64,000 nucleotides of DNA from positions 18,068-82,067 of the forward strand of contig JAZRMH010000030.1 of the NCBI GenBank assembly GCA_045647425.1, read 5' to 3'. This DNA is from Faecousia sp. (GTDB lineage: Bacteria; Bacillota; Clostridia; Oscillospirales; Oscillospiraceae). Shown in pieces: positions 16,199 to 40,066 of the stretch. A program made the translations under genes and the position numbers. The stretch's first letter is position 1, and every line of letters begins with the position of its first letter. Under the pieces are notes generated by a model. That model saw only the letters and a list, made by a program, of their open reading frames with translations, did no database searches and had not been told where the DNA came from.

Positions 16199-16227
16199 TT
16201 GACAGAATGGCGCAAATCGGCTATAAT
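16199..16227 (+). promoter_or_regulatory. Perfect-consensus SigA promoter of the main polysaccharide operon
   Basis: TTGACA (16199-16204), exactly 17 nt, TATAAT (16222-16227). Confidence 0.7.
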
Positions 16228-16271
16228 AGCCAGTAATATAGGGAGATTCTGTCCGAAAGGAGTTTTTGAAA

Positions 16272-17576: not shown

Positions 17577-17580
17577 GGAT

Positions 17581-18792: not shown

Positions 18793-18807
18793 TCAGTGAG
18801 GATTTTT

Positions 18808-19722: not shown

Positions 19723-19724
19723 GT

Positions 19725-20333: not shown

Positions 20334-20344
20334 AGGATAGGATT

Positions 20345-20800
20345 ATGAAAATTTGCTTTGCCGCTTCTACCGGCGGACATTTTGAACAACTGATGATGCT
20401 TCGTCCTTTGATGGACAAGCACGATAGTTTTATTCTCACAGAAAAAACCGCCTATGCCACGGTAAAGCCCACAGACAAGGCTTATTATTTGCATCAGGTC
20501 AACCGCAAGGAAAAAAACTGGCTGTTTGCGATGATTGGCAACGCTTTTCGCAGTTTGGGCATTTTTTTCAAAGAGCGTCCCGACGCGGTGATTTGCACCG
20601 GTGTTTTGGCGATGATTCCCATGTGCTTGTACGCCAAACTCTTTGGCAGGAAACTGATTTACATTGAGTCCTTCGCCAAAGTCACTTCCCCCACGGAAAC
20701 CGGTAAACTGCTGTATAAATTTGCCGACAAATTCTATGTCCAGTGGGAGAGCATGTTGGAAATTTATCCCGACGCCACATTTTTGGGAGGGATTTACTGA
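20345..20800 (+). CDS. Alg14-like glycosyltransferase membrane/anchor subunit (PssD/Cps14F-like)
   Basis: MKICFAASTGGHFEQL, RPDAVICTG and IYIESFAKVTSPTETGKL..QW are typical of the family. Confidence 0.8.
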   Translation: MKICFAASTGGHFEQLMMLRPLMDKHDSFILTEKTAYATVKPTDKAYYLHQVNRKEKNWLFAMIGNAFRSLGIFFKERPDAVICTGVLAMIPMCLYAKLFGRKLIYIESFAKVTSPTETGKLLYKFADKFYVQWESMLEIYPDATFLGGIY

Positions 20801-21291
20801 TGATTTTTGTTACATTAGGCTCTCAAAAATTTCAGTTTGACCGACTTTTGGAAAAACTGGACGTTCTGCTGGCGCAGGGGGTTATCACCGACGAAGTGTT
20901 TGCCCAATCCGGCTACAGCACCTACCGCCCCAAGCATTTTACGGCTGTGGATTTTATGGACAGAGAAACCTTTGCAAACTATATGCAAAAGGCGGATATG
21001 GTGATTACCCACGCCGGCACCGGTGCCATTATCGGCGGTGTGAAGGCGGGAAAAAAGGTCATTGCCGTGCCCCGACTTGCCAAATTTGGCGAGCATGTGG
21101 ATGACCACCAATTGCAGATTGTGGAGCAGTTTTCCGAAATGCAGATTATTGAGCCTTGCTACGATTTGACTTTGCTGGGCAAGACATATCAAAAAGCCTT
21201 GGAAACCACTTACACACCCTATGTGTCCAACACCCAAACCATTATCCGCAGTATCGAAGAATTTTTACAAGGGGACAAGACAAATGGATAA
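20800..21291 (+). CDS. Alg13-like glycosyltransferase catalytic subunit (PssE/Cps14G-like, Glyco_tran_28_C)
   Basis: The start overlaps the upstream stop. MIFVTLGSQKFQFDRL, ITHAGTGAIIGG and GEHVDDHQLQIV. Confidence 0.8.
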   Translation: MIFVTLGSQKFQFDRLLEKLDVLLAQGVITDEVFAQSGYSTYRPKHFTAVDFMDRETFANYMQKADMVITHAGTGAIIGGVKAGKKVIAVPRLAKFGEHVDDHQLQIVEQFSEMQIIEPCYDLTLLGKTYQKALETTYTPYVSNTQTIIRSIEEFLQGDKTNG

Positions 21292-22165
21292 TCTGACAAA
21301 AAATCTCATATTAACGCCATTTAATTTGCTGTATAAAATCAGCCCCGAGTTGGATTTAAAACTGCTGTTTCGGCTGAAATTGGGCTATCCTTTGCATTTG
21401 GAAAACCCCGTTACCTACAATGAAAAATTGCAGTGGATTAAACTCAACGATAAAAACCCCTTAATGCCTAAGTGCTGTGATAAATATGCGGTTCGGCAGT
21501 ATATTGAAAGCAAGGGTTACGGCCATATTCTAAACGGCCTTTTGTGGCAGGGATTTAACCCCGAGGAAATTCCTTTCGACAGTCTGCCCTCGCGGTTTGT
21601 GGTGAAAGTCACCCACGGCTCGACTTTTAATATTATCTGCACCGACAAATCCAAACTGGACCGGGCAGATGTGATTGCAAAGTGCAAAAAGTGGCTGAAA
21701 GCCAAATTTTTGCCCTGCTACGGCGAGTGGTTTTACGGTATTGAAAAACCCCGCGTGATTGTGGAAGAATTTTTGGAAGGGGACAACGGAATGCCCCTAT
21801 TTGACTACAAACTCTTCTGCTTTAACGGTGAGCCGAAAATGGCATATATCGACACTTGGAAGGATGGAAAGCATACCATTAACGCCTACGATATGGATTG
21901 CAACCTATTTAAGGGCGTCCGTTTGGGCTACCCCAACGACGACGAAACCCAAGTGGAAAAGCCTGCCTGCTGGGAAGAAATGAAGCAAATCGCCCGAGAT
22001 TTGTCCAAAGATTTCCTACATGTCCGTGTGGACTTCTACTATACCCACGGCAAAATTTATTTTGGCGAACTGACCTTCACCAAAGGCGCGGGCTTCGGCA
22101 AAATCGAGCCTCACGACTTTGATGTGAAAATGGGCAACTGGTTGAATTTGCCGAAAAAACAGTAA
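21284..22165 (+). CDS. TupA-like ATP-grasp amidoligase family protein
   Basis: YNEKLQWIKL, VVKVTHGS, DYKLFCFNGEP and RVDFYYTHGKIYFGELTFTKGAGFG are characteristic of TupA-type ATP-grasp proteins from polysaccharide loci. Visibly AT-richer than its neighbours. Confidence 0.75.
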   Translation: MDNLTKNLILTPFNLLYKISPELDLKLLFRLKLGYPLHLENPVTYNEKLQWIKLNDKNPLMPKCCDKYAVRQYIESKGYGHILNGLLWQGFNPEEIPFDSLPSRFVVKVTHGSTFNIICTDKSKLDRADVIAKCKKWLKAKFLPCYGEWFYGIEKPRVIVEEFLEGDNGMPLFDYKLFCFNGEPKMAYIDTWKDGKHTINAYDMDCNLFKGVRLGYPNDDETQVEKPACWEEMKQIARDLSKDFLHVRVDFYYTHGKIYFGELTFTKGAGFGKIEPHDFDVKMGNWLNLPKKQ

Positions 22166-24034: not shown

Positions 24035-25099
24035 ATGCCCGAAGCAAAAAAGATTTGTTTTGTGCTTCCCAATCATATCCGTAAGCCCATTGGCGGACAC
24101 AAAATTGTTTTTGAATATGCCAATCGCCTTGTGCAGGCGGGTTTCGAGGTGGATATTTGCTACCAAAATCGGGATGTGCTGAAAAAGTTTCACCTGCCTG
24201 AACCCTTGCGCCGGATGGCCACCAACTTTTTGGCACGAAAGGGGATAAACTGGTTTCCCCTCTCTAACAAGGTGAAGAACTACTCCGGCTATGACCCCGC
24301 ATTTTTAAAACATACCAAACAATACGATTATGTATTCGCCACCGGCGTAGATACCGCAGAATTTGTGCAGAAGCAGTTCTCTTGCCGAAAGTTATACCTG
24401 ATTCAGGGCTATGAAAACTGGTCGGTGTCCGAGGAATACCTGCACAGCACTTACCAAATGGACTTTACCAACATCGCCGTTGCCAACTGGCTCAAGCCGG
24501 TGGTGGAAACCCATTCCCAAAAGCCTTGTTATGTGATTAAAAACCCCGTAGATGTGGGATTTTATCAAATTTCCAACCCCTTGGAAAATCGAAAGCAACA
24601 TACCGTGGCGGCGCTGTATCACACCACCCCTTGCAAGGGCTTTTCCTATTTGATGGAAGCGCTGTTGCAACTGAAAGAGAAATATCCGGATTTTCAGGCG
24701 GAGATTTTTGGAATTCCCCCTCGTCCTGCGGAATTTCCCGATTGGATTGTGTACACCCAAAGCGCCACCGCCGAGGAAACCGTGGCGATTTACAATCGGG
24801 TGCCGGTGTTCCTCTGCGCCAGTGTGGAGGAGGGCTTCGGCCTGACCGGATTGGAAGCCATGGCCTGCGGTGCGGCGCTGGTTTCCACCGCGTATCAGGG
24901 GGTTTTGGAATATGCTGACGAAACAACCGCCCTACTTTCCCCCGTGAAGGATGTAAACGCATTGGCAGAAAATGTCAGCGACCTATTTGAAAACGACGAA
25001 AAACGCATTGCCTTGGCACAGACCGGACACGACAGTGTGCAAGACTTGTCTTGGGATGTGGCAATGGAAAAATTGCTTGGAATTTTAAAGGCAGAATAA
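24035..25099 (+). CDS. GT-B fold family 1 (GT4-type) glycosyltransferase
   Basis: ATG 24035 follows AGGAGG. C-terminal EEGFGLTGLEAMACGAALV (E-x7-E). Confidence 0.85.
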   Translation: MPEAKKICFVLPNHIRKPIGGHKIVFEYANRLVQAGFEVDICYQNRDVLKKFHLPEPLRRMATNFLARKGINWFPLSNKVKNYSGYDPAFLKHTKQYDYVFATGVDTAEFVQKQFSCRKLYLIQGYENWSVSEEYLHSTYQMDFTNIAVANWLKPVVETHSQKPCYVIKNPVDVGFYQISNPLENRKQHTVAALYHTTPCKGFSYLMEALLQLKEKYPDFQAEIFGIPPRPAEFPDWIVYTQSATAEETVAIYNRVPVFLCASVEEGFGLTGLEAMACGAALVSTAYQGVLEYADETTALLSPVKDVNALAENVSDLFENDEKRIALAQTGHDSVQDLSWDVAMEKLLGILKAE

Positions 25100-25119
25100 G
25101 AAAAAAGGAGGAGATAAGG

Positions 25120-26301
25120 ATGATAAATTCCGTTCGCAAAGAAACGCTGTATTATTTCTTTTTGCGACTGTTTGTCTATGTCAATGTCTTCTCCGAAAGC
25201 CAGTTAGACACAATGCCGGTGGTGGGCGAACTGCTGTTTTTGCTCCGCAACGGCTTGCTTGTGGCGTTTTTTCTGCTGTTACTCATCGATGACCGTGGAT
25301 TTCGGCAAAATTTTGTGGCCATCGGTGGAAGCATTCTGCTGTTCTTCGCCTTCCGCATTGTGGCCAATAACAGCGGTCTGACCCCTATCACTCTATTTTT
25401 AATTGCGTGGACTTCTTACAAGAAAGATTTGAGCAAAATTTTTAAGTATGTGCTGACGGACATTATCCTAGGCTATCTTTTGGTCTACGGCTTGTGCGCA
25501 GTGGGTATTTTGGAAGATGAAGTGTCCAATCGGACCGTGGTGGATTTTAAAGGCTCTTTTTTAAGCGGTGATTACGCTCGTCACAATTTGGGCTTTGTTA
25601 TCCACAACCAAAGCCCCACCACATTTTTGCTGGTGGTATTATTGGCAATCGGCTATCGGGGCAGTCACTTGTCCTTTCCGATTTGCGTGGGCATCTTAGC
25701 GTTAAACACTTTGTTTTTCTATCTGTGCGGTTCTCGGGTGGTGTTCCTTTTGGGAATCGTGGTGGTGCTGGCTTACTGGCTGGCGCTGTTCCTGAAAAAA
25801 CGCTTCCACCTGACAACCCTTGCCAAAATCGGGTATTTGGCATTTCCTTTGTGCTGTATCGGTATGTTTTTGGCAACTTACCTCTATCCCCGAGGCTCTT
25901 ATGCGTTGTATTTGGCAAACGGATTGCTCAATAATCGCCTTTTGTTTGGCTACACTGCCTTGCAGAAATACGGTTTTACCTTATTCGGGGCAGGGCAGAG
26001 CGCAGGTTCCTATGCCACGATGGATGTGACGGTGGACAGCGGGTACATCATCACCTATCTTCAGCAAGGCCTTGTGGTTTTGGTGCTGATGATGCTGGTA
26101 TTCCAGCGGGCGATGACCGTAGCCATCCGTCGGAAAAATATTTTCCTAGTGATGGCGCTGTGCTTTGTGGCGGTGGAAAACATTGTCAACGCCCATATTT
26201 TCAGTTATAAACTGATACCGTTCTACTGCATCTTGCTCAATCCCGATGCGGAATTTCTGTCCGACGGGGTTGCCCCGCGAAAATGGCTGACATTGGAGTA
26301 A
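25120..26301 (+). CDS. Polytopic membrane protein, probable Wzy-type polysaccharide polymerase
   Basis: 394 aa with 10 or more hydrophobic helices and no soluble domain. Sits between the GT genes and Wzx. RBS AGGAGGAG. Confidence 0.6.
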   Translation: MINSVRKETLYYFFLRLFVYVNVFSESQLDTMPVVGELLFLLRNGLLVAFFLLLLIDDRGFRQNFVAIGGSILLFFAFRIVANNSGLTPITLFLIAWTSYKKDLSKIFKYVLTDIILGYLLVYGLCAVGILEDEVSNRTVVDFKGSFLSGDYARHNLGFVIHNQSPTTFLLVVLLAIGYRGSHLSFPICVGILALNTLFFYLCGSRVVFLLGIVVVLAYWLALFLKKRFHLTTLAKIGYLAFPLCCIGMFLATYLYPRGSYALYLANGLLNNRLLFGYTALQKYGFTLFGAGQSAGSYATMDVTVDSGYIITYLQQGLVVLVLMMLVFQRAMTVAIRRKNIFLVMALCFVAVENIVNAHIFSYKLIPFYCILLNPDAEFLSDGVAPRKWLTLE

Positions 26302-27351: not shown

Positions 27352-28773
27352 GTGAATGAAAAGTTAAAATATTTAACAACCAACACCTTGGTGTTTGCCA
27401 TCAGTTCCTTTGGCACAAAGTTTTTGTCCTTTGTGCTGGTGCCCCTTTACACCAATGTACTGACCACTGCCGAATACGGCATTGCCGATATTATTGTCAC
27501 TACGGCAACCTTGATGATTTTCTTATTCACAGTGAATATCGCCGATTCCGTGCTTCGGTTTGGCATTGAGGCAAAGTCCGGCAAGCAGGAAATTCTGTCC
27601 TACGGTATGCGGGTCATCGGCATCGGCAGCCTTTTGGCGGCCGGAGTGCTGACGGTGGTGGCGCTGAGCGGTTTGGTGGATTGGAAAACAGAATATTATG
27701 TGTTCTTGTTCCTATATTATTTCTTTACGGCGTTGTATCAAACCTTAGCCAACTATATGCGGGCGGCAGACAAGGTAAAAGATGTGGCCATCGGCGGTAT
27801 CATTTCCTCTGTGGCTATGATTGGCTGTAATTTGCTGTTTTTGCTGGTGATTAAAATCGGGCTGATGGGCTATCTAATCGGCTTGGTGGCAGGTCACTTG
27901 GCAGGCACGGTTTATTTCCTGCTCAGAGGGAAAATTACCCTGCCTTACTGGGGCATTCGGCTGTGTGACAAGGAAACCCGCCATCGAATGATGGTATACT
28001 GTATGCCCCTGATTCTCAACAGCGTGGCGCTGTGGGTCAATAGTTTTCTATCCCGCTTTTTCATCACCGGTTTTTGCGGTGCGGGTGCCAACGGCATTTA
28101 TTCCGTGGCCAACAAAATCCCCGTTATTTTATCCACTTGCTACACCGTGTTTTCCCAAGCGTGGGGACTTTCCGCCATTCGGGAATTTGACCCCGAGGAT
28201 ACCGACGGCTTCTTTGCCGGTACCTATAAAGTCTATAACGCCCTGATTTGTATGGCTTGCAGTGGGCTGATTATCCTCAATGTGCCCATTGCCAAATTGC
28301 TGTTTGCCAAGGACTTTTTTGTGGCTTGGGAATATTCCTCTTTGCTGCTGCTGTCGGTGATGTTCAATGCCCTGACGGTGTTTATGGGCAGTATTTTCAC
28401 CGCGGTGAAAAATACCAAAATTTTGGCAACCACCACGCTCTTTTCTGCGGTGGTGAATATTGGGCTGAACTTGCTTCTTGTGCCAAAAATGGGGGTTATG
28501 GGTGCGGCTTTGGCCAACTTTACTTCCTATGTGGTGATGTGGGTGGTTCGGCTGGTGTACGCCAAGAAGTATATCAAAATGAAAATCAACTTGGCCAAGG
28601 ATGTTTTGGTCTATGTGTTGCTCTTGGGGCAGGTCGTGTTGGAACATCGCCTGCCGGACCACGGCTATGTATGGCAGGGGTTGATTTTTGTGGGAATTGT
28701 CCTTCTAAACGGCAAGCAGTTTGTAGAGATTTTAAAGAAGTTATTTTCTAAATTTTTATCCAAGAAGGGGTAA
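27352..28773 (+). CDS. Wzx-type oligosaccharide flippase (MOP/PST family)
   Basis: GTG start 9 nt after AGGAG. 473 aa, 12-14 TM helices. N-terminus SFGTKFLSFVLVPLYTNVLTTAEYG. Confidence 0.8.
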   Translation: MNEKLKYLTTNTLVFAISSFGTKFLSFVLVPLYTNVLTTAEYGIADIIVTTATLMIFLFTVNIADSVLRFGIEAKSGKQEILSYGMRVIGIGSLLAAGVLTVVALSGLVDWKTEYYVFLFLYYFFTALYQTLANYMRAADKVKDVAIGGIISSVAMIGCNLLFLLVIKIGLMGYLIGLVAGHLAGTVYFLLRGKITLPYWGIRLCDKETRHRMMVYCMPLILNSVALWVNSFLSRFFITGFCGAGANGIYSVANKIPVILSTCYTVFSQAWGLSAIREFDPEDTDGFFAGTYKVYNALICMACSGLIILNVPIAKLLFAKDFFVAWEYSSLLLLSVMFNALTVFMGSIFTAVKNTKILATTTLFSAVVNIGLNLLLVPKMGVMGAALANFTSYVVMWVVRLVYAKKYIKMKINLAKDVLVYVLLLGQVVLEHRLPDHGYVWQGLIFVGIVLLNGKQFVEILKKLFSKFLSKKG

Positions 28774-28776: not shown

Positions 28777-30012
28777 ATGTCGCTGATTGAGAAAGTAGTC
28801 ACCCAAGTAAAGCGCTACGGTATTTCCAGCGTGACCCAGCGGGTGTTGCAAAATAAAATATATCCCCCCTTAGATCGGCTTTGTATGGGGGTTATGAAAC
28901 GACTTACGAAAAATAAGCCCTTGCAAGACACCATTATTTTGGAAAGTCATAACGATTTTGACACCAACGGCGGCGGTTTGTATCGCTATCTCATTGCCCA
29001 AGGGCATAACCGAAACTACCGGATTGTGTGGTTTCTGCGGAATAAAAAGCCGAAGAATTTGCCGGAAAATGTGTTGGCTTTCAATATGTTCCGCCCCAGT
29101 TTCCGAAAGGCCTATTATCTTTGCACCGCAAAGATTATCAGCATCGACCATGTGTTCCCCCCGAAGGTCAGAAACGACCAAAAACTGTTTTACCTCACCC
29201 ACGGTCCTTTCTGCTTGAAGGCGGTGTCCGGCAAGGTTTGTATGCCCGAGGGGTTGGACTATTACTTATGTCCTTCCAAGGCGGTGGCGGAAATTCACGC
29301 CAGCCAGTTGGGGCAGGACTATCCCAACAAGCGCGAGTTGATTTTAGGCTTTCCCGTCCATGATGTGCTGTATTCCCAAGAAAAAGGAGATTTGCACAAA
29401 TTGACGGATAAGGCTTTTTCCAAGGTGCTGTTGTGGATGCCCACCTTCCGCCGTTCCAAGGTGCATCTCAAGCGCATTGACAGCAAAATGGAACAGCCTA
29501 TGGGCATTCCCATTATCGAAGATGAACAGAGTTATCAGGCGCTAAATTCTGCGTTGGCAAAGGAAAATGCGCTGTTGATCATTAAAATTCACCCTATGCA
29601 GGACTTGACCTATGTGAAGGTGAAGAGTCTGTCCAACATTTTGGTGCTGGACGGTATGGCTATGAAGCGGTTTGGGATTGATAACTACCGTTTGATGAAA
29701 GATACCGATGCCCTCATCAGCGACTATTCCTCTGCGGCCAATGACTATTTGCATACCGGAAAACCCGTTGCCTATACCATGGATGACGCAGGCTGTTTCG
29801 GTTCGGGCTTTATTGTGGACGATGTGACCACTATGACAGCAGGTCCGTTTATTCGCAATCAGGAAGATTTTTGGGAATTTGTCAAGCAAGTACTGTCCGG
29901 TGAGGATGCTTACCGAGAAAAACGACAACAACTACTGAAAACCATTTTCGATTACCGTGACGGCAACAGCGCCCAGCGTCTGTGCCGATTTATGGGAATT
30001 GAAAAAGAGTAA
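28777..30012 (+). CDS. CDP-glycerol glycerophosphotransferase family protein (TagB/TagF-type)
   Basis: LLWMPTFR, IKIHPM and LISDYSSAANDYLHTGKPVAYTMDD match the Glyphos_transf core. Confidence 0.8.
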   Translation: MSLIEKVVTQVKRYGISSVTQRVLQNKIYPPLDRLCMGVMKRLTKNKPLQDTIILESHNDFDTNGGGLYRYLIAQGHNRNYRIVWFLRNKKPKNLPENVLAFNMFRPSFRKAYYLCTAKIISIDHVFPPKVRNDQKLFYLTHGPFCLKAVSGKVCMPEGLDYYLCPSKAVAEIHASQLGQDYPNKRELILGFPVHDVLYSQEKGDLHKLTDKAFSKVLLWMPTFRRSKVHLKRIDSKMEQPMGIPIIEDEQSYQALNSALAKENALLIIKIHPMQDLTYVKVKSLSNILVLDGMAMKRFGIDNYRLMKDTDALISDYSSAANDYLHTGKPVAYTMDDAGCFGSGFIVDDVTTMTAGPFIRNQEDFWEFVKQVLSGEDAYREKRQQLLKTIFDYRDGNSAQRLCRFMGIEKE

Positions 30013-30022
30013 GGAGAAAAAT

Positions 30023-31834
30023 ATGCAAGGTCTGATTTTGGCGGCAGGTATGGGTCGCAGATTAAAGGATTTAACCAACAATAACACCAAGTGTATGGTC
30101 AGGGTCAATGGTGTAACGATGATTGAGCGGATGCTTCATCAACTCGACGCATTAAACCTTTCCCGCATTGTTATTGTGGTGGGTTACGAAGGGCAGAAAC
30201 TGATAGACTATATCAGCACTTTGCATGTCAAGACCCCCATTTGCTATGAGGAAAACCCCATTTATGACAAAACCAACAACATTTATTCTTTGGCGTTGGC
30301 AAAAGAGCATTTGTTGGAAGAGGACACTCTTTTGCTGGAATCCGACCTGATTTTCGAGGACAGTGTGCTCACCGCAATTTTGGAAGACCCCCGAGAAACT
30401 TTGGCGCTGGTTGACAAGTACGAAAGTTGGATGGACGGCACTTGCGTCCGCCTTTCGGAAGACGATTCCATTGAAGCCTTTGTCCCCGGCAAGAAGTTTG
30501 TCTTTGAGGACATTCCCCATTATTACAAAACCGTCAACATCTATAAATTCAGCCGGCATTTCAGCCGTACCCATTATGTGCCGTTCTTGGAAGCCTATTC
30601 CAAGGCATTGGGCAACAATGAGTACTATGAGCAGGTTTTGCGGGTGATTACCATGCTGGACGATCCGGAAATCAAGGCAAAACGGCTCAACGGCGAGTTG
30701 TGGTATGAGATTGACGATATTCAGGATTTGGATATTGCCGAGTCTATGTTCGCCACCACTGAGGATGAGAAACTCTCCCGCCTGCAGAGCCGATACGGCG
30801 GATACTGGCGCTATCCCAAGTTGGTGGACTTTTGTTATTTGGTCAATCCCTACTTCCCCCCGAAGAAGATGACCGATGAAATGAAGGCCAGTTTTGAAAA
30901 ACTTTTGACCCAGTACCCCTCCGGTATGTGGGTGAACAGCCTTTTGGCCGCCAAGAATTTTGGGGTCAATCAGAAAAACATCTTGGTGGGCAACGGCGCG
31001 GCAGAACTGATTAAATGCCTGATGGAAAAGTTTACCGGCAAGGTAGGCTTTATCCGCCCCACATTTGAAGAATATCCCAACCGTTACAATCGGGAACAGC
31101 AGGAAGTTTTTGTGCCTCAAACCGAGGACTTTTCCTATACGGCTGAGGATATTATGACCTTCTTTGCCCAAAAGGATATTGACAATTTGGTGCTGATCAA
31201 TCCGGATAACCCCACGGGCAACTACCTGCCGAAGGCAGATGTTCTGCGTTTGGTAAAGTGGTGCGCCCAAAGAAATATCCGCATCCTTGTAGACGAGAGT
31301 TTTGTGGACTTTGCCGAAGAAGAAAACAGCACTCTGATTTGTCAGGAAATTATAGAAGAAAATCCCAACTTGTTGGTGATGAAGTCTATTTCCAAGTCCT
31401 ACGGCGTACCCGGCATCCGGCTGGGCGTGTTGGTCTCTGCGGACCAAACTTTGATTGCCGAAATGAAAAAGGAAGTCGCCATTTGGAATATCAATGCCTT
31501 CGGCGAGTTCTATTTGCAGATCGAAGAGAAGTACCACAAGGATTATTTGCAGGCGCTTAAGAAGATTAAGGCAGTGCGCAAAGAATTTGTTTCCCAACTG
31601 TCCACAATTTCCGGATTGCGGGTGTTCCCCTCTCAAGCCAACTATGTGACGGCAGAAGTGGTGGGAATGCAGGCACGGGAATTGACAAAACGGCTTTTGT
31701 GCCAGTATGACTTGTTTATTAAGGATTTGACAGGCAAACTCTCTAGAAATGACCGCCAGTTTGTCCGCTTGGCTGTCCGCGACGAAAAGGACAATGCCCG
31801 CTTGGTGCGGGCACTTCGTGAGATTTTAGGTTAA
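30023..31834 (+). CDS. Fusion protein: N-terminal LicC-type nucleotidyl(cytidylyl)transferase domain plus C-terminal class I/II aminotransferase-fold (HisC/CobD-like) domain
   Basis: N-terminus: MQGLILAAGMGRRL and WYEIDDIQDLDIA. C-terminus: VLINPDNPTGN, VDESFVDF and MKSISKSYGVPGIRLG, with the PLP-lysine position conserved. ATG 30023 follows AAGGAG. Confidence 0.8.
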   Translation: MQGLILAAGMGRRLKDLTNNNTKCMVRVNGVTMIERMLHQLDALNLSRIVIVVGYEGQKLIDYISTLHVKTPICYEENPIYDKTNNIYSLALAKEHLLEEDTLLLESDLIFEDSVLTAILEDPRETLALVDKYESWMDGTCVRLSEDDSIEAFVPGKKFVFEDIPHYYKTVNIYKFSRHFSRTHYVPFLEAYSKALGNNEYYEQVLRVITMLDDPEIKAKRLNGELWYEIDDIQDLDIAESMFATTEDEKLSRLQSRYGGYWRYPKLVDFCYLVNPYFPPKKMTDEMKASFEKLLTQYPSGMWVNSLLAAKNFGVNQKNILVGNGAAELIKCLMEKFTGKVGFIRPTFEEYPNRYNREQQEVFVPQTEDFSYTAEDIMTFFAQKDIDNLVLINPDNPTGNYLPKADVLRLVKWCAQRNIRILVDESFVDFAEEENSTLICQEIIEENPNLLVMKSISKSYGVPGIRLGVLVSADQTLIAEMKKEVAIWNINAFGEFYLQIEEKYHKDYLQALKKIKAVRKEFVSQLSTISGLRVFPSQANYVTAEVVGMQARELTKRLLCQYDLFIKDLTGKLSRNDRQFVRLAVRDEKDNARLVRALREILG

Positions 31835-31846
31835 GGATTGGTGCCT

Positions 31847-32914
31847 ATGAAGATTGCAGTAATCGGCGGCGGAAATATCGGCACGCTTTTGGCGGCGGAA
31901 ATGGCAAACAAAGGCCACAGTGTTTTTGTGTATACTTCCAAGCCTGCCAACTGGCAAAAGACGCTTACGGTTTTAGATCCGGAAAAAAATCCGGTACTGC
32001 AAGGAACGCTCACCCAAGTGACCGATGATTTGCAGGAAGCGGTTTTGGGCGCAGAGTATATTTTTATTACCCTGCCAGCGCAACTGATTGCTTCTTTTGC
32101 CCCGAAACTAGAGCCTTTTGTGACGGCGGGACAGAAAATCGGACTCATCCCCGGCAGTGGCGGCGGTGAGTTTGCCTTCCGTGGGATTTCGGAAAAAGGC
32201 TGTGTCCTATTCGGCTTTCAGCGGGTTCATAGCATCGCAAGGCTGGAAACTTATGGGCAATCCGTGGTGATGCTGGGGCGGAAAAAGTCTTTGGAAATCG
32301 GCGCAATTCCCAGCGCTTACGCCCAAGAAGTCTGCCGAACCATAGAGAATCTCTTGGACATTCCCTGCAATGTCCTGCCCAATTACCTCTGCGTCACGCT
32401 CACGCCGTCTAATCCGATTTTGCACACCACACGGCTGTGCAGTATGTTTGCGGACTATCAAAAGGGAATCTTTTACCCCGAGAAACCTCGGTTTTATGAG
32501 GATTGGACGGACGCTTCCTCTCGTCTGCTCATCGCTTGCGATGAAGAATTGCAGGCTTTGTGCGATACCATCCCCTTGGATTTGCATACGGTGCAGGCGT
32601 TGACGGCGTATTACGAAAGCCCCACCGCAGAAAAAATGACTCAAAAAATCCGCAGTATTCCCGCCTTTCGGGGTTTGACCTCGCCAATGGTGCAGATGGA
32701 ACAAGGGTGGATTCCGGATTTTTCTTCCCGGTATTTTACAGCGGACTTTTCCTTCGGATTGAAGATTATCAAGGATTTGGCAGAATTGTTTGCGGTTCCC
32801 GCACCGCATATTTCCAAGGTGTGGAACTGGTATGTTGCCCAAAATCCGGAAGACAGCCAAAATGCCTTCGCGTTATCCCTGAGCAAAGAGGAATTCTTAT
32901 CCTTATATCGGTAA
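31847..32914 (+). CDS. NAD(P)-dependent octopine/nopaline (opine) dehydrogenase-family reductase
   Basis: MKIAVIGGGNIGTLLA Rossmann motif and SNPILHTTRL, a typical opine-DH helical-domain motif. ATG 31847 lies 9 nt after AAGGA. Confidence 0.7.
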   Translation: MKIAVIGGGNIGTLLAAEMANKGHSVFVYTSKPANWQKTLTVLDPEKNPVLQGTLTQVTDDLQEAVLGAEYIFITLPAQLIASFAPKLEPFVTAGQKIGLIPGSGGGEFAFRGISEKGCVLFGFQRVHSIARLETYGQSVVMLGRKKSLEIGAIPSAYAQEVCRTIENLLDIPCNVLPNYLCVTLTPSNPILHTTRLCSMFADYQKGIFYPEKPRFYEDWTDASSRLLIACDEELQALCDTIPLDLHTVQALTAYYESPTAEKMTQKIRSIPAFRGLTSPMVQMEQGWIPDFSSRYFTADFSFGLKIIKDLAELFAVPAPHISKVWNWYVAQNPEDSQNAFALSLSKEEFLSLYR

Positions 32915-32935: not shown

Positions 32936-33610
32936 ATGCTAGATTTACACAGCCATATATTGCCCCAAATGGATGACGGAAGCGACAGCGTGGAAACATC
33001 CCAAAAGATGCTGGAAACCCTTTCCCAGCAGGGGGTGACGGTGGTGGCGGCAACCCCCCATTTTTATGCGGTTAAAGATAACCCCGCAGATTTCCTGCGT
33101 CGCCGCGGGGAAAGTATGGCGCAACTTGCCGAATATGCAGAAAGATTCCCCCGCATCCTATTGGGCGCGGAGGTGGCATACTTTGACGGAATGAGCCGTT
33201 GCGCAGATTTGAAACAAATGGAACTGGGCAACACGGGACTTCTGCTGGTGGAAATGCCGTTTTCCGATTGGACAATCCGTATGGTGGAAGAAGTGTTTCG
33301 CATACCCATCGAGTTGGGATTGACGCCGGTGCTGGCCCATGTGGAACGGTATCGGGGCAGAAAACAACTTCTCAAATTCCTGCCGGAACTGGCGAGCCAA
33401 AATGTGTCGATGCAGTGTAACGCAGAGGCGTTTTTGTCGGGAACAACCCGACGCTTTGCCCTTTCTATGGTGAAAAACGGGTACATCCATTTCTTAGGCA
33501 CGGATTCTCACAACTTAACCACCCGCGCACCCCGCTATGCAGAGGCGGTGCAGGTCATCACAAAAAAACTGGGTAAAGAAATCTGCGAGGAACTGACAAA
33601 AGAGGTATAA
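32936..33610 (+). CDS. cpsB: CpsB/CapC-type PHP-family tyrosine-protein phosphatase
   Basis: MLDLHSHILPQMDDGS, ATPHFY, AHVERY and GTDSHN are the metal-binding His/Asp motifs of CpsB. Confidence 0.85.
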   Translation: MLDLHSHILPQMDDGSDSVETSQKMLETLSQQGVTVVAATPHFYAVKDNPADFLRRRGESMAQLAEYAERFPRILLGAEVAYFDGMSRCADLKQMELGNTGLLLVEMPFSDWTIRMVEEVFRIPIELGLTPVLAHVERYRGRKQLLKFLPELASQNVSMQCNAEAFLSGTTRRFALSMVKNGYIHFLGTDSHNLTTRAPRYAEAVQVITKKLGKEICEELTKEV

Positions 33611-33614: not shown

Positions 33615-33647
33615 GGACTGTTGCAATTTTGCAACAGTCCCTTTTTT
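33615..33647. terminator. Bidirectional terminator closing the polysaccharide locus
   Basis: GGACTGTTGCAA tt TTGCAACAGTCC flanked by an A run and a T run. Confidence 0.85.
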
Positions 33648-34575
33648 ATCTTAAAACATACTGGGCAAGTAACACCACAAGGGGCATCGATACCAAACTT
33701 AATAAGGTGCAAAGCACCACGGCTTTGCTGGCATAGACATAATCTTTGTTGTGCAGTTGGGAATACACCGCCACATTTGCCCCCACCGGCGCAATGGCGG
33801 GGATAAGAAGCGCGGTGAGAATGTTGGCATTAAAATTGGGGACAAAGGCGTTCAGCACCCAAAATACCAGCAGAGTCAGCAGGGAAATCAACACCAAACG
33901 CACAAAACTTACCAAATACAACCGCTTGTCTGTCCAAAGGGTTTTCATATCCGCTTGTGCCAAATACACACCCATAACCAACATGGCGATGGGGGAATTG
34001 ACGGCGGCAATGCCGGACATGGTACCGGTAATCACCTCGGGCAGTTTTGCACCCCAGCCGGTGAAGAACAGAATAAGACCCAAGGGAACACTTAAAACCA
34101 AGGGGTGGGCAAGGGTTTTGAGGTGGAAATCCATTTTGGTTTCCTTGATCACCGCAACACCGTAAATCCACTGCAAAACATTCACTTGGGCAACAAAATA
34201 CACGATGTAAAACACGCTGTCCGCGCCTAAGCAGGCGGTGACCAGCGGGATGCCGATAAATCCGGCATTTCCGAAAGCGGCTGCCACACTGTCAATGGGG
34301 CGGTTTTTAAAAAACAGCCGACTGACCAAAATGGAAAGTCCTTGGGCCAAAGTCGCCGCCAAAGTGCTAAGCCCCAAGCCCACCAACCGCTCTTTGGTGG
34401 GTTCGACACAAAAACTTTTCGCCAAAACCACGGGGATGACCAGCCAAGTCAATAGGGTAGCCAGCGTGGCGCTACCGGCTTTGCTCACTTTTTTGGTGCG
34501 GTACAAAACAAAACCGAGGGCCATATATAAAAACATAATGAAAATTTGCTTCGTCAGCAACTGCGCAACTTCCAT
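33646..34575 (-). CDS. AEC-family (auxin efflux carrier-like) transporter
   Basis: 309 aa, 10 TM helices. N-terminus QIFIMFLYMALGFVLYRTKKVS is typical of AEC permeases. Confidence 0.8.
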   Translation of the reverse strand: MEVAQLLTKQIFIMFLYMALGFVLYRTKKVSKAGSATLATLLTWLVIPVVLAKSFCVEPTKERLVGLGLSTLAATLAQGLSILVSRLFFKNRPIDSVAAAFGNAGFIGIPLVTACLGADSVFYIVYFVAQVNVLQWIYGVAVIKETKMDFHLKTLAHPLVLSVPLGLILFFTGWGAKLPEVITGTMSGIAAVNSPIAMLVMGVYLAQADMKTLWTDKRLYLVSFVRLVLISLLTLLVFWVLNAFVPNFNANILTALLIPAIAPVGANVAVYSQLHNKDYVYASKAVVLCTLLSLVSMPLVVLLAQYVLR

Positions 34576-34598: not shown

Positions 34599-35360
34599 TC
34601 AATCCTGCTGAAAGGGCTTGTCCGAGGGATAGCCGCCTTTGAGTTTTTGCATACCTCTGGGCACAGCGTCCTTGGAATTTTTCCAAGGGACTTGGGCGTT
34701 GCGGTAGTCAAACTTGTCAATAAACCAGTCAATATCCTCTTGCACCCGGGCCAAGTTGTTTTCCATCACGGCAAACACCGTGGGGTAGAACCAAGAGATT
34801 TGATTGTTGGGCAAAAATTCCTCTGCCATTTCCAAAAGTTGACGGAAATGGTGCATACAAAAGCCTTTGCCTTGTTCCACGGTAGCCCGAAATTCCGGCT
34901 CTTTGAGCAGGTGGAAGAAGGTGGCATAGTAGCGGCGCATATTATAAGCAAGCCGGCTACACAAGAAACAACTGTGTTCCTTTTCCTTTGCCCATTGGGT
35001 AATGGGCAGGGATTTTTCCTGCTTTTTGGCAAACAGACCCTTCTTTTCCGGCAATTCAAAAGCGCTCAGTTGCGCCCGAAATTCCTTTTGCAGACCCACA
35101 TAATAGGTTTGCATCATCAGGGCATTTCCCAGTGCGTTGCCGTAGTCGTACAGTGCTTTATAGTGGTGGCGGCAGAAGCCTTGGGCATCGGTCACCGCCC
35201 GCACATCCGGTTCCATATAACTGGCTTCCGGTCCGGCGATATACCGCAGAGCCCGATGTTCTGCCTGCCGTTCCAAGTAGCAAAAGGGACATTCGTCGTT
35301 TTTGGAAAAGGCGTCGGTTACCGGTATGGTATCAATATGTTCTTTCATAAGTTTCGTCAC
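34599..35360 (-). CDS. Conserved hypothetical protein with duplicated CxxC...GFCxHH module
   Basis: ECPFCYLE...GFCRHHY is repeated as HSCFLCSR...GFCMHHF. No TM helix and no known catalytic motif recognised. Confidence 0.6.
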   Translation of the reverse strand: MTKLMKEHIDTIPVTDAFSKNDECPFCYLERQAEHRALRYIAGPEASYMEPDVRAVTDAQGFCRHHYKALYDYGNALGNALMMQTYYVGLQKEFRAQLSAFELPEKKGLFAKKQEKSLPITQWAKEKEHSCFLCSRLAYNMRRYYATFFHLLKEPEFRATVEQGKGFCMHHFRQLLEMAEEFLPNNQISWFYPTVFAVMENNLARVQEDIDWFIDKFDYRNAQVPWKNSKDAVPRGMQKLKGGYPSDKPFQQD

Positions 35361-36108: not shown

Positions 36109-36308
36109 TGGTTAACACCTCCGAGAAGCATTATTGCCCAACTTTGGAAAAATAAACCTATTTTAAAAAGATTCATAAAAAAATATTTATTTTGGTGTTT
36201 TCGGCAAAATTCCACTACCATTTTCCAGAAAAATATGTTATGTTATTTGTGGGGAAATTTGGGCTTTGCCCGTTTCCAATTATGAAAAGTCTAAAGGAGT
36301 GGAATGCC

Positions 36309-37499
36309 ATGTACTTCCAGAAAAAACGATGCATTGCGATGCTGTTGGCAGGCGGCCAAGGCAGCCGTCTGAAGGTGCTGACCAAAAACACAGCCAAACC
36401 CGCTGTCCCCTTTGGCGGTAAGTATCGAATTATTGACTTTCCTTTATCTAATTGTGTCAATTCCGGCATTGATACTGTGGGTATTTTGACCCAGTATCAG
36501 CCCTTGGAATTGAACGAATATATCGGCAACGGTCAGCCTTGGGGTTTGAATAAATCCCAAGCCAGCGCGCAGGTTTTGCCCCCCTATGAACGGCACGATA
36601 AGAAAAACGGCTGGTATAAGGGCACTGCCAATGCCATTTATCAGAATATCGCCTTTATCGACCGGTATGATCCGGAGTATGTGGTGGTGCTTTCCGGTGA
36701 CCATATTTACAAGATGGACTACGCGGATATGATTGATTTCCACGAAAAGAACAACGCTTCTTGTACCATCGCTGTGCGGAATGTGCCGTTGGCGGAAGCC
36801 AGCCGTTTCGGCATCCTTAACAGCAATCCGGACAACTCAATTTACGAGTTCGAGGAAAAACCTGCCAAGCCTAAATCTACCAATGCCTCTATGGGCATTT
36901 ATGTGTTCAACTGGGATGTTCTGCGGGAATTTTTGATTGCAGACGAGGAAGACGAAACTTCTGCCAATGATTTTGGCAAGAACATCATTCCCAATCTGCT
37001 GAAGGCGGGGCATAAGTTAATGGCCTATACCTTCAACGGTTATTGGAAAGATGTGGGAACCATTGACTCTTTGTGGGAAGCCAATATGGACCTTTTGGGT
37101 AAAGAGCCGAAATTGAATATCCGCGGGGATGATCAAAGCCGGATTTACGCCCGCAATAACGCACTGCCTTCTTCCTATATAGACGAAAATGCCAAAACCG
37201 AGGCTTGCTTTATCGCTGAGGGTTCGGAAATTTACGGCGCAGTTCGCCATAGTATTATCTCCATCGGCTGTATTGTGGGAAAAGGCGCATTGGTGGAAGA
37301 CAGTGTGGTAATGCCCGGAGTCGTTATCGAGCCGGATGCTATTGTCCGTCACGCAATTCTCGGCGAAAACAGCAAGATTTGCCGAGGCGCGGTGGTAGGC
37401 GGCGCTTATGCCCCCAATGAGAAGAAGAAAATCAGTGTTACCGGTAAGGACACTGTCTTAGAAGAAAACACCGTGCTTTTGCCCGGTGAAATGCTGTAA
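36309..37499 (+). CDS. glgC: Glucose-1-phosphate adenylyltransferase
   Basis: ATG 36309 lies 9 nt after [44 protein letters not shown]. Confidence 0.93.
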
Positions 37500-37514
37500 A
37501 GGAGGGCGAGTATT

Positions 37515-38624
37515 ATGAATGTAATGGGTATTGTATTTGCCAATGATGGCACATTGGGCGCTTTGACAGAAAAGCGTACTATGGCAAGCCTTCCCTTTGG
37601 CGGTCGTTACCGTCAGGTGGATTTCGCCCTTTCCAATTTGTCCTGCGCCGGTATTCACAGGATTGGTATCGTCACAAGACATAACTACCAAAGCCTTATG
37701 AACCATGTGGGTTCCGGTGAAGAATGGGGCTTAGAAATGGAAGCCGGTGGTTTGGAATATCTGACCCCCTATTCCTCTTCCAGCACCTCGGATTATCGAG
37801 GTAAATTGGAATCGTTGTATGCGGCAATGAGTTTTTTGGAATATGGGGACGACGACTATTTAATTATGGTGGATGCGGCCATTATCAGTAATGTGGATTT
37901 GTTGCAGGTACTGCATTCCCATATCGAAAGCGGAAAAGATATTACCGTGGTCACCAAGTCCGGCATTGCCGACGGTCACCGGAAACTGGACTTGGCAATC
38001 AAACTGGACAAGGACAATTCTGTGGTAGATGTGGCGGTGGACTATCCCGCACCCAGCGATTACGAAGCCTCTATGGATATTTTTGTGCTGTCCCGCAAGT
38101 GGCTGATCAATCAGTTGCAGGAACATATTGCGCGGAACTTGTTCCATATGGACCGGGATTTGGTGCTGGGCCTTTGGAAAGAGCAAAAAGCCACACTGAA
38201 TGTCTATCGCTTTGGCGGTGTTGCGTTGTGTAATGACACCGTGGAAGAGTATTTCCAAAACAACTTGGCGCTGACGAAAAAGGAAATTCGGGACGACCTC
38301 TTTGGCCGAAACCATCCGGTCTTTACCAAAGTTCGGGACCGTGTGCCCACCTATTACGGTGAAAACAGCGAAGTGAAAAATTGTTCTGTGGCAGACGGCT
38401 GTATGCTGGGCGGTGCGGTGTGTAATTCCATGCTGTTCCGTCAGGTTACCGTTTTCCCCACTGCGGTGGTAAAGAATTGTGTCATTATGAACGATACGGT
38501 GGTAGGCGAGGGCGCTTACTTGGAAAATGTGATTTTGGATAAAGATGTGGTGGTGCGTCCGGGGACAAAACTTACCGGAACGCCGACAAATCCCGTGATT
38601 GTCAAACGAGGTGACGTGGTATGA
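37515..38624 (+). CDS. glgD: Glucose-1-phosphate adenylyltransferase subunit GlgD
   Basis: A GlgC paralogue lacking the GGxGxRL loop (SLPFGGRYRQVDFALSN). Position between glgC and glgA. Confidence 0.88.
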   Translation: MNVMGIVFANDGTLGALTEKRTMASLPFGGRYRQVDFALSNLSCAGIHRIGIVTRHNYQSLMNHVGSGEEWGLEMEAGGLEYLTPYSSSSTSDYRGKLESLYAAMSFLEYGDDDYLIMVDAAIISNVDLLQVLHSHIESGKDITVVTKSGIADGHRKLDLAIKLDKDNSVVDVAVDYPAPSDYEASMDIFVLSRKWLINQLQEHIARNLFHMDRDLVLGLWKEQKATLNVYRFGGVALCNDTVEEYFQNNLALTKKEIRDDLFGRNHPVFTKVRDRVPTYYGENSEVKNCSVADGCMLGGAVCNSMLFRQVTVFPTAVVKNCVIMNDTVVGEGAYLENVILDKDVVVRPGTKLTGTPTNPVIVKRGDVV

Positions 38625-40066
38625 AAATAGCCATCCTAGCGTCGGAAGGTGCGCCGTACATCAAGTCCGGCGGGCTGGGCGATGTGATGGAAGCGCTTCC
38701 TTCGGCACTGGCGAGAATCCCCGGAAACGAAGTGGTGCTGATATTACCCTACTATAAAAAAATATTAGAAAATGATCGGTATTCGGTGGAATTTGTCACC
38801 TGCTTCGACACCCAACTTGGGTGGCGTCAGCAGTACACCGGCGTGTTGAAACTGAAAAACCGCAACGACGGTGTGCAGGTGTACTTTTTGGACAATCTGT
38901 ATTACTTCGGCAACCGCCCCGGGGCAATTTACGGGGATATGGACGACGGAGAACGGTTCGCCTATTTTTCCAAGGCTTGTTTGGAAACCCTGAAACGCCT
39001 GAATTTTATTCCCGATGTGATTCAGTGTAACGACTGGCAAACCGGATTGGTGCCGGTGTATTTGGCGGCTCAATATTATCCGGATTTTCCCGGTACCAAG
39101 TGCATGTTCACCATTCACAATGTGGAATATCAGGGCTGGGCAGACCCCTATTTCTTCGACGATGTGCTGGCGCTACCCCATAACTGGCGGGCTTGCCTAG
39201 ACCTAAACGGCGGCGTCAATGTGATGAAGGGGGCAATTGAAACCGCCCACTTAGTCACCACCGTGTCGGAAACTTATGCCGGACAGTTGATGCAGTCTTA
39301 CTATGCCCACGGAATGGAAGGAATTTTGCAAAATGCCGCCGGAAAACTCACTGGTATTACCAACGGCATCGACACCAACACCTTCAACCCCGCTACCGAC
39401 CCTGCGCTGTGCTGTCATTATGATGTGACCAGTTTCGGCAACGGTAAGGCAAAGTGCAAGGCCGCCTTGCAACAAGAAGTCGGGCTGCCTCAAAAGCCGG
39501 ACACGCCCCTTTTGGTGATGGTCACCCGATTGGCGGGGCACAAAGGCTTGGATTTGCTGTGTTATATCGCCGAGAAAATGCTCAATGAGCAGGATTGTCA
39601 GTTGTTGATTTTGGGCACGGGCGAGGCAAAATTTGAGCAGTTCTTCCAAGAGTTGGCAGAGAAATATCCGGACCGTGTGGCGGCGGAAATCACCTTCAAT
39701 TTAGGCCTTGCCTCTCGGATTTACGCCGGCGGTGACATCTATTTGATGCCCTCGAAAAGTGAGCCGTGCGGTTTGAGCCAAATGAACGCCATGCGCTACG
39801 GTACCGTGCCGGTCGTCCACGCCACCGGTGGCTTAAAAGACACCGTGCCCGGGGTAGACGAGATGGGCAGAGGCGGTTTGGGCTTTACCTTCCAAAGTTA
39901 CAATGCCGACGATTTCTATGGTGCAATTTGCCGTGCGGTGGATTTGTACCATCACCGACCCGAGGCATTTTATGGGTTGCAGAAAACCGATATGGAACAG
40001 GATTTCGGTTGGGATAAGCCTGCCGGACGCTATATGGCGCTGTTTCAAAAGATGTTAGGAAATTAA
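38621..40066 (+). CDS. glgA: Glycogen (starch) synthase
   Basis: EGAPYIKSGGLGDV (KxGGL) and a C-terminal SEPCGLSQMNAMRYGTVPV. Confidence 0.93.
   Translation: MKIAILASEGAPYIKSGGLGDVMEALPSALARIPGNEVVLILPYYKKILENDRYSVEFVTCFDTQLGWRQQYTGVLKLKNRNDGVQVYFLDNLYYFGNRPGAIYGDMDDGERFAYFSKACLETLKRLNFIPDVIQCNDWQTGLVPVYLAAQYYPDFPGTKCMFTIHNVEYQGWADPYFFDDVLALPHNWRACLDLNGGVNVMKGAIETAHLVTTVSETYAGQLMQSYYAHGMEGILQNAAGKLTGITNGIDTNTFNPATDPALCCHYDVTSFGNGKAKCKAALQQEVGLPQKPDTPLLVMVTRLAGHKGLDLLCYIAEKMLNEQDCQLLILGTGEAKFEQFFQELAEKYPDRVAAEITFNLGLASRIYAGGDIYLMPSKSEPCGLSQMNAMRYGTVPVVHATGGLKDTVPGVDEMGRGGLGFTFQSYNADDFYGAICRAVDLYHHRPEAFYGLQKTDMEQDFGWDKPAGRYMALFQKMLGN

Follow-up and report, generated by a model that had tools for sequence, protein, structure and literature searches.

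A putative module for nitrogen-containing phosphodiester decoration of a rhamnose-containing polysaccharide in Faecousia sp.

The DNA analysed in the present study is a stretch of 64,000 nucleotides from Faecousia sp. (GenBank assembly GCA_045647425.1, contig JAZRMH010000030.1, positions 18,068 to 82,067), referred to as a whole as the window. Near the 3′ end of a polysaccharide operon it carries three adjacent genes, encoding a TagF-like phosphotransferase, a nucleotidyltransferase fused to a pyridoxal phosphate (PLP)-dependent enzyme, and a reductase of the opine dehydrogenase family. A preliminary description had reported this trio at positions 28777-32914 and the absence of TagD from the window. 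The corresponding open reading frames (ORFs) were recovered at those positions with every motif quoted for them, and TagD was found neither by tblastn of the 64-kb window with an approximate B. subtilis TagD sequence nor by a six-frame scan for the HxGH motif. The trio, the two domains of the fusion and the features flanking the trio are as follows (coordinates are those of the window; aa, amino acids).

28777-30012, + strand: TagF/TarL-family (Glyphos_transf) phosphotransferase, 411 aa (ORF, Pfam)
30023-31834, + strand (open frame from 29957): cytidylyltransferase/PLP fusion, 603 aa from ATG 30023 (ORF, Pfam)
30023-30772, + strand: N-terminal part of the fusion (aa 1-250), a LicC/PntC-type nucleotidyltransferase domain, probably a cytidylyltransferase (Pfam, PDB alignments)
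30782-31834, + strand: C-terminal part of the fusion (aa 254-603), a CobD-like PLP domain of class I/II (NCBIfam, PDB alignments)
31847-32914, + strand (open frame from 31838): opine-dehydrogenase-family NAD(P) reductase, 355 aa from ATG 31847 (ORF, Pfam)
27352-28773, + strand: Wzx-type flippase, directly upstream of the trio (Pfam Polysacc_synt 2e-18, MurJ 9e-8)
32936-33610, + strand: CpsB/Cps4B-type (PHP) phosphatase, last gene of the operon (Pfam CpsB_CapC 7e-43; NCBIfam Cps4B 6e-25, below cut-off)
33615-33640, + strand: terminator-like hairpin with an 11-bp stem and a T-run

The three genes are co-oriented, separated by intergenic gaps of 3-21 nt and served by a single terminator. The TagF-like gene starts 3 nt past the Wzx stop codon, and only the CpsB-like phosphatase gene and the hairpin lie downstream of the trio. 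With Wzx immediately upstream, the module belongs to a Wzx/Wzy-type heteropolysaccharide operon.

The product of the first gene carries the motifs LISDYSSAANDY, PTFR and KIHP, and matches PF04464 (Glyphos_transf) over residues 49-405 (3.5e-36; 125.4 bits against a cut-off of 22.1). Its only sequence match in the PDB is S. aureus TarL (8va1; E = 0.0016), in which KMHP and LISDYSS align with its KIHP and LISDYSS; the His of KIHP is presumably catalytic, as generally held for TagF. Scores for the TarF and TarL equivalog models fall far under their cut-offs (32.5 versus 550 and 27.2 versus 1000, respectively). The enzyme is a distant member of its family. We propose that it moves a phospho-substituent from a cytidine diphosphate (CDP) donor to the repeat unit. 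An ordinary supply of CDP-glycerol made in cis was rejected, there being no TagD found in the window.

The fusion protein contains LAAGMGRRL, WYEIDDIQDL, NPDNPTG, DESF and SISKSYGVPGIRLG, and its start at ATG 30023 is backed by a homologue of 64% identity whose first residue aligns with its own. At the N-terminus, residues 3-122 match Pfam NTP_transf_3 (1.9e-10) and NTP_transferase (7e-9), residues 2-251 align with the PntC domain of Tde1415 (PDB 6pd1; 4e-12), and the first 100 residues align with pneumococcal LicC (1jyk; 1e-11). G9, G11 and R13 of the signature AAGMGRRL are invariant in 34 homologues, as is the catalytic K23, and E106 aligns with E104 of Tde-PntC, which hydrogen-bonds the primary amine of the substrate (PMC6697681). 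The domain is probably a nucleotidyltransferase of the LicC/PntC type, acting as a cytidylyltransferase. Tde1415 itself (T. denticola PntC-AEPT, PDB 6PD1/6PD2) is a characterised protein of a phosphonate tailoring pathway in which the cytidylyltransferase and the PLP enzyme supplying its amine-bearing substrate form one chain, and it serves the decoration of cell-surface glycans (PMC6697681). The two proteins share an N-terminal LicC-like cytidylyltransferase joined to a PLP enzyme in one polypeptide; they differ in the PLP domain, which in Tde1415 belongs to the class V transaminases and has a phosphonate, 2-aminoethylphosphonate, as its substrate, whereas that of the window protein is class I/II, CobD-like and presumably directed at a phosphate ester. 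A further difference is that the Treponema system has no reductase partner.

Residues 315-598 of the fusion match Pfam Aminotran_1_2 (2.8e-30). The top NCBIfam model is CobD (TIGR01140; 4e-53), at 180.6 bits against an equivalog cut-off of 290.55, and HisC (TIGR01141) scores 149 bits against a cut-off of 276.55. The top PDB match is 6oux, deposited as ‘Thr-P decarboxylase-like enzyme’ (1.6e-46), and Salmonella CobD (1lc5) is matched at 6.5e-30; the database gives only this molecule name for 6OUX, which we take to be SMUL_1544 of S. multivorans, a decarboxylase of O-phospho-L-serine (Ser-P). On the CobD alignment, K458 corresponds to the Schiff-base lysine K216, N396, D424 and R466 to N157, D185 and R224, R582 to R337, and K567 to R323. 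The window domain thus has the fold of CobD and 6OUX together with their Schiff-base Lys, PLP-binding Asn/Asp/Arg and substrate-phosphate Arg. It differs from CobD in scoring below the equivalog cut-off, in being fused to a nucleotidyltransferase, in lying in a polysaccharide operon rather than a cobamide pathway, and in having YGG in place of the N-terminal HGG motif. Because the 34 fusion homologues, at identities down to 54%, show no variation in the Schiff-base Lys or in the residues that bind PLP and phosphate, the alignments indicate that the PLP site is live and built for a phosphorylated substrate. A vestigial PLP domain was rejected, as the 34 fusions share 219 invariant positions across both domains, including the whole PLP site.

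The higher CobD than HisC score is suggestive of a decarboxylase over a transaminase, as is the likeness of DESF to the DEAF of CobD; the HisC motif is DEAY. A transaminase of the HisC/Cj1437 type would instead convert dihydroxyacetone phosphate (DHAP) to serinol phosphate for cytidylylation by the fused domain, with the reductase acting on the amine or elsewhere. We regard such a CDP-serinol pathway as very unlikely, since the CobD model scores above the HisC model, the nearest solved relatives of the domain are of decarboxylase type, and the Phe of DESF is as in CobD, where HisC has Tyr. It is consistent, however, with the HisC score being also good, and with one variant locus (L013) in which the reductase lies beside a standalone enzyme that is clearly HisC-like (250 bits). 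Both chemistries have precedents in C. jejuni capsule decoration, in which the Ser-P decarboxylase Cj1436 and the DHAP transaminase Cj1437 make ethanolamine phosphate and serinol phosphate (PMC11800397).

The third product carries VIGGGNIG and SNPILHTTRL and matches Pfam Octopine_DH (PF02317; 1.4e-29, 103.5 bits against a cut-off of 30) as well as NAD_Gly3P_dh_N. Its sequence matches in the PDB are octopine dehydrogenase (OcDH; 3c7a, 6e-19) and CENDH (1bg6). H193, R295 and D300 align with H212, R324 and D329 of OcDH, which, from general knowledge of that enzyme, we take to be a His-Asp dyad and an Arg binding the carboxylate of the 2-oxo acid, and they are at least 90% conserved in 61 representatives of the family. 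In a Foldseek search with the AlphaFold2 model (pLDDT 94) the top 12 PDB matches were all opine dehydrogenases, among them octopine dehydrogenase, CENDH and the staphylopine, yersinopine and pseudopaline dehydrogenases (TM-scores 0.64-0.85; 0.79-0.85 to OcDH and CENDH), followed by the ketopantoate reductases and D-mandelate dehydrogenases, which are 2-oxo-acid reductases; all close structural relatives of the reductase act on a 2-oxo acid. Fold, His-Asp dyad and carboxylate-binding Arg are shared with the Pecten (3C7A) and Arthrobacter (1BG6) enzymes, although identity to these is only 22-23% and the window reductase lies in a glycan-decoration locus. The family has conserved residues of its own, R126, W220 and K267, which could bind phosphate. 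The preliminary description left the role of the reductase unexplained; the conserved opine-dehydrogenase machinery, together with the recurrent nitrogen-chemistry neighbours described below, suggests that it modifies the amine of a phospho-amino-alcohol.

The reductase family comprises 265 clusters at 50% identity (E ≤ 1e-30), or 2271 proteins at E ≤ 1e-20. Natural fusions join it to an Asp/Glu racemase (P0196, 597 aa) and to LicD (P0259, 922 aa, with about 460 further residues that have no assignment). The former parallels the pairing of racemase and opine dehydrogenase in staphylopine synthesis (CntK/CntM). A search of plasmids with the reductase gave only distant matches (<32% identity) in unrelated contexts on rhizobial and Burkholderia replicons. 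One family member, ‘Opine dehydrogenase [Chlamydia trachomatis]’ (P0197, CRH87940.1), is 100% identical to a gene beside the fusion in an Arcanobacterium metagenome-assembled genome (MAG), the single locus returned by a genome scan with this protein, and its Chlamydia label almost certainly reflects contamination or mislabelling.

The best 120 matches to the fusion are 595-618 aa long and 72-76% identical apart from the window’s own protein, and all but one contain all three Pfam domains. They derive from MAGs and isolates of Ruminococcus, Oscillospiraceae, Acetatifactor and other Clostridia, and are labelled only ‘aminotransferase class I/II-fold PLP-dependent enzyme’, while the reductases are labelled ‘octopine/nopaline dehydrogenase family protein’. 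The module is common in gut Clostridia and is annotated there only in these generic terms. A metagenome scan with a 15-sequence reductase alignment yielded 80 loci, whose contexts were surveyed by tblastn; these fall into 56 clusters, and 31 non-redundant loci are flanked on each side by 2.5 kb or more. The fusion adjoins the reductase in 38 of the 80 loci, always as a single reading frame (a further five are truncated where the contig stops), and in 14 of the 31 non-redundant loci, a recurrence that shows the adjacency not to be due to chance. A standalone PLP enzyme is present in four of the 31, a LicC-like nucleotidyltransferase in 19, and a phosphotransferase in 22 (LicD 16, TagF 10). Cultured carriers are Paludicola sp. 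MB14-C6 (CP133133.1) and Haloimpatiens sp. FM7315 (CP175761.1).

The partner phosphotransferase switches between loci, being TagF, LicD or CDP-OH_P_transf. Three loci (L001-L003) combine CDP-OH_P_transf, the fusion, Octopine_DH and rmlACBD; in the Arcanobacterium MAG (L005) a 64%-identical fusion accompanies Octopine_DH with LicD nearby. The main comparative argument for a module that makes a CDP donor is that these interchangeable transferases all come from families using CDP-activated alcohols. An OCD/mu-crystallin protein also occurs beside the fusion: it replaces the reductase in L004, where LicD and the fusion are found with OCD/mu-crystallin (11842-12786) and without Octopine_DH, and it joins the reductase in L009, L026, L028/L033 and L065. 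The best NCBIfam models for this protein are archaeal alanine dehydrogenase, Pyr2C/Pip2C reductase, SbnB and BhcD, such that the fusion has links to two imine-reductase families that are unrelated to each other. Aminotransferases, both HisC-like and of class V, also occur near members of the reductase family, as do an amidohydrolase and an amino-acid permease.

Taken together, these protein families and contexts make the trio best explained as a donor-synthesis and transfer module that would decorate a rhamnose-containing polysaccharide of the Wzx/Wzy type with a phosphodiester-linked side group containing nitrogen. In the scheme that we propose, the CobD-like PLP domain would decarboxylate Ser-P, the most economical substrate, or O-phospho-L-threonine, giving ethanolamine phosphate or 1-amino-2-propanol phosphate; Ser-P is preferred because it is a central metabolite of serine biosynthesis and the locus carries no threonine kinase. 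The fused LicC/PntC-type domain would then use cytidine triphosphate to form a CDP-amino-alcohol, from which the TagF-like enzyme would pass the phospho-amino-alcohol to a hydroxyl group of a sugar in the lipid-linked repeat unit at the cytoplasmic face, before flipping by Wzx. The reductase, in the least certain step, may condense a 2-oxo acid, for instance pyruvate, with the free amine and reduce the imine to an N-(1-carboxyalkyl)amino-alcohol phosphate, at either the phosphate or the CDP stage. Gene order, domain composition, intact residues, co-occurrence and the variable transferases are observed, whereas substrates, products and the order of steps are what we infer from them, with confidence falling from TagF-type transfer, through the feeding of the cytidylyltransferase by the PLP enzyme (as in Tde1415) and the decarboxylation product, to N-carboxyalkylation. 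We consider it likely that the TagF-like enzyme transfers from a CDP donor made in cis, that the PLP domain feeds the cytidylyltransferase and that the amino-alcohol phosphate arises by decarboxylation, all three jointly. The full scheme, with N-carboxyalkylation by the reductase, is offered tentatively, at somewhat less than even confidence.

The preliminary description agrees in part with this picture. Its general claim, a self-contained module in which a CDP-activated small phosphate ester would be made and transferred by a TagF-type enzyme, is supported because the catalytic residues are intact, the genes are operonic and conserved together, and their partners are CDP-alcohol-type phosphotransferases. 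The co-occurrence that it proposed to survey is seen in the recurrence of fusion and reductase (14 of 31 non-redundant loci) and of TagF with the reductase (10 of 31). The second of its two hypotheses, in which the fused domain would cytidylylate what a genuine CobD/HisC-like PLP enzyme makes, is the better supported, given the invariant site, the decarboxylase-type best matches and the Tde1415 precedent; the PLP pocket in question is intact on the CobD alignment in its Lys, PLP-binding and phosphate-binding residues.

The evidence from the PLP domain, the nucleotidyltransferase and the TagF-like enzyme would be identical under a plain CDP-ethanolamine or CDP-aminopropanol pathway, in which an unmodified phospho-amino-alcohol is installed and the reductase is peripheral, for example supplying or recycling a 2-oxo or 2-hydroxy acid or an amino donor, or serving another part of the repeat unit. 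In Paludicola sp. and other loci the fusion and reductase are kept while all else differs, leaving the role of the reductase unconstrained, and the structures next nearest to it are ketopantoate reductase and D-mandelate dehydrogenase. This pathway is nevertheless unlikely in our view, as the adjacency of fusion and reductase is tight and recurrent, the reductase-LicD fusion ties the reductase to a phospho-substituent pathway, and the opine-dehydrogenase catalytic set is conserved in the reductase.

A second cassette found in the survey combines the reductase with a nucleotidyltransferase fused to a choline-kinase/APH domain. It often includes an extra HTH-nucleotidyltransferase, Amidohydro_3 or an APC-family amino-acid permease (L047, L062, L065 and L078), or, in another form, a HisC-like aminotransferase, LicD and an acetyltransferase (L013, L014 and L018); in one version a triple HTH-nucleotidyltransferase-kinase-nucleotidyltransferase protein of 882 aa is encoded. 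Coordinates within four of these loci are given below.

L047, 9094-13380: second cassette
L062, 953-5013: second cassette
L078, 301-3575: second cassette
L013, 9115-13476: second cassette

Reductases from the PLP-type and kinase-type contexts share nearest relatives among the retrieved members of the family, mostly at ~45-65% identity with no obvious split by context, and the same reductase seems, from these relationships, to serve both cassettes. The two plausibly converge on a phosphorylated amine, obtained in one case by decarboxylation of a phospho-amino acid and in the other by uptake and phosphorylation.

The kinase cassette bears on the hypothesis favoured in the preliminary description, that the trio corresponds to WchX with Gtp1, Gtp2 and Gtp3 of pneumococcal serotypes 23F and 15, with gtp2 and gtp3 fused, CDP-2-glycerol as donor and glycerol-2-phosphate installed. 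In the pneumococcal loci the genes are ordered wchX, gtp1, gtp2, gtp3, rmlACBD (PMC5581491), a small phosphodiester side group is installed (PMC1391919, PMC5581491), and gtp1, gtp2 and gtp3 are annotated ‘putative glycerol-2-phosphate dehydrogenase’, ‘putative nucleotidyl transferase’ and ‘putative phosphotransferase’, respectively (PMC3493582). By annotation and gene order the layouts are alike, each having a TagF-like transferase, a reductase or dehydrogenase, a nucleotidyltransferase and one further enzyme near rml genes; moreover, the gtp1 annotation would fit a reductase with an NAD_Gly3P_dh_N-like N-terminus, and one locus (L051) joins a reductase homologue to GlpA-like genes. We nevertheless disfavour this hypothesis and judge it improbable. 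The third pneumococcal enzyme is annotated as a phosphotransferase (PMC3493582), whereas the window has a PLP domain and no kinase, and the pneumococcal product, glycerol-2-phosphate, is nitrogen-free. A route leading from dihydroxyacetone through glycerol to glycerol-2-phosphate offers no obvious use for an intact, invariant PLP site and its phosphate-binding arginines, and the N-terminal domain of the fusion keeps the acidic residue that contacts the amine in PntC. No Streptococcus occurs among 20 inspected representatives of the reductase clusters, picked partly for low GC content and named Ruminococcus, Treponema, Gallitreponema and Marinifilaceae, nor among the best 120 matches of a reductase profile built from 21 low-GC representatives. 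The kinase cassette is the more natural counterpart of Gtp1-3, and because Pfam names the APH/choline-kinase family ‘phosphotransferase’, the term used in the gtp3 annotation, Gtp1-3 would correspond to that cassette and not to the PLP fusion. The window module would then be a sister variant with a decarboxylase in place of the kinase, and its product need not be glycerol-2-phosphate.

Several points weigh against the decarboxylation and N-carboxyalkylation scheme. Its substrates are assigned by family resemblance across all members. As the PLP domain scores under both the CobD and HisC cut-offs, it could be a transaminase, for example one forming serinol phosphate from DHAP as Cj1437 does. 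Some reductase homologues have no PLP or kinase gene within reach, two loci (L010 and L011) having only LicD, reductase and nucleotidyltransferase. In L051 (8001-12335) a reductase homologue heads an operon with DAO/BFD (GlpA-like), Pyr_redox_2 and DUF1667 genes, a trio that could represent either an amine oxidase resembling opine oxidases or a glycerol-3-phosphate dehydrogenase, and might point to DHAP or glycerol chemistry; upstream of this operon are an LCP gene and a gene for a GH25 lysozyme with choline-binding repeats. Gtp1, should it belong to the reductase family, would also count against the scheme, for Wang et al. (2010) are said to have found Gtp1 to reduce dihydroxyacetone to glycerol, with no opine involved.

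The product type predicted by this scheme is exactly that of the O14 antigen of Proteus mirabilis, which carries N-[(R)-1-carboxyethyl]ethanolamine phosphate (R-Cet-EtnP) in phosphodiester linkage to a sugar (PMC5560731, S4 table; PMC9630907). The difference is that this substituent is known from structure alone, the O14 gene cluster being described as simple, with no biosynthetic genes assigned. The paper on the cluster and its supplements name no genes for R-Cet-EtnP, which leaves the structure without a genetic link to the window module and is a further point against the scheme. A Clostridial glycan with a phospho-linked nitrogen group is found in the type A flagellin modification of C. difficile 630 (CD0241-CD0244), phospho-N-methyl-L-threonine, made with a LicC-like enzyme (PMC4441256). 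There, however, the phospho-amino acid stays intact, no decarboxylase or opine-dehydrogenase-like reductase is involved, and the other steps come from different gene families. Homologues of the window module likewise lie beside flagellin genes. In Haloimpatiens sp. FM7315 (L088) a reductase homologue and a giant protein with tetratricopeptide-repeat, glycosyltransferase and Glyphos_transf parts stand beside a flagellin gene, the nucleotidyltransferase and aminotransferase being called as separate, possibly degraded, genes; at another locus (L031) a reductase homologue, a nucleotidyltransferase and a class V aminotransferase lie beside fliD. Both are apparent flagellin-glycosylation islands.

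The logic of making a small group, activating it with cytidine triphosphate and transferring it is already known from the Lic, Pnt, Tar and Gtp pathways; for the combination of a CobD-like decarboxylase fused to a cytidylyltransferase with an opine-dehydrogenase-family enzyme, no characterised member was found. Small charged phosphodiester groups such as phosphocholine, phosphoethanolamine and glycerol phosphate, when carried by surface polysaccharides, strongly shape antigenicity, recognition by phages and lectins, and host immune responses, and the module is relevant to the surface antigens of gut commensals. Were the scheme correct, it would provide a bacterial route to CDP-ethanolamine independent of a kinase, a genetic marker in commensals for a nitrogen-containing, possibly opine-like, surface epitope, and a new role in glycan decoration for the opine dehydrogenase family. 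It would also supply candidate genes for substituents of the R-Cet-EtnP type, long known but genetically orphan, and thereby their first genetic and enzymatic basis. More broadly, it is possible, though doubtful as a whole, that gut Clostridia and some Actinobacteria convert Ser-P to CDP-ethanolamine and on to CDP-N-(1-carboxyalkyl)ethanolamine, and that interchangeable TagF, LicD or CDP-alcohol transferases attach the resulting group to capsules, to wall polysaccharides and perhaps also to flagellar glycans.

The remainder of the operon and the genes beyond it comprise the following features.

14131-20333: rml genes (rmlA starts at 14131)
16266-17576: 436-aa product without a Pfam match
17557-18792: UDP-glucose dehydrogenase, same operon
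20300-21291: candidate Alg14/Alg13-type split glycosyltransferase, two short overlapping ORFs of 166 and 182 aa (GGHFEQL motif, by eye only)
21221-22165: TupA-like ATP-grasp protein, same operon (PF14305, 4.6e-42)
25051-26301: 416-aa product, probably Wzy, without a Pfam match
33646-34575, opposite strand to the operon: next gene past the terminator
34599-35360, - strand: DUF6062 protein (1.4e-90), just past the locus and unrelated to the module
36192-40066, + strand: glycogen operon (glgC-like, glgD-like, glgA), unrelated to the module

From 5′ to 3′ the locus runs rmlA, rmlB, UDP-glucose dehydrogenase, rmlD, rmlC, the Alg14/Alg13-like pair and the TupA-like ATP-grasp gene, followed by three glycosyltransferases, the probable Wzy and an acyltransferase, then Wzx and the trio. 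No initiating phosphoglycosyl transferase was identified in the portion of the window scanned. In C. jejuni, the ATP-grasp amidoligase Cj1438 (Cj1438C domain) amidates glucuronate with ethanolamine phosphate or serinol phosphate (PMC11800397). Judged by described activities, the window resembles that system in also having a UDP-glucose dehydrogenase and a TupA-like ATP-grasp protein; it differs in that the C. jejuni amine phosphate is amide-linked to glucuronate and then dephosphorylated, with neither CDP activation nor a TagF-like enzyme. With these two genes in the same operon, an amide decoration might draw on the amine phosphate too. In L010 and L011, likewise, TupA is found with the reductase. 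The CpsB/Cps4B phosphatase gene at the 3′ end of the operon is treated as context to the module; regulators of the CpsB type usually lie near the 5′ end of an operon, whereas this gene is the last of its operon.

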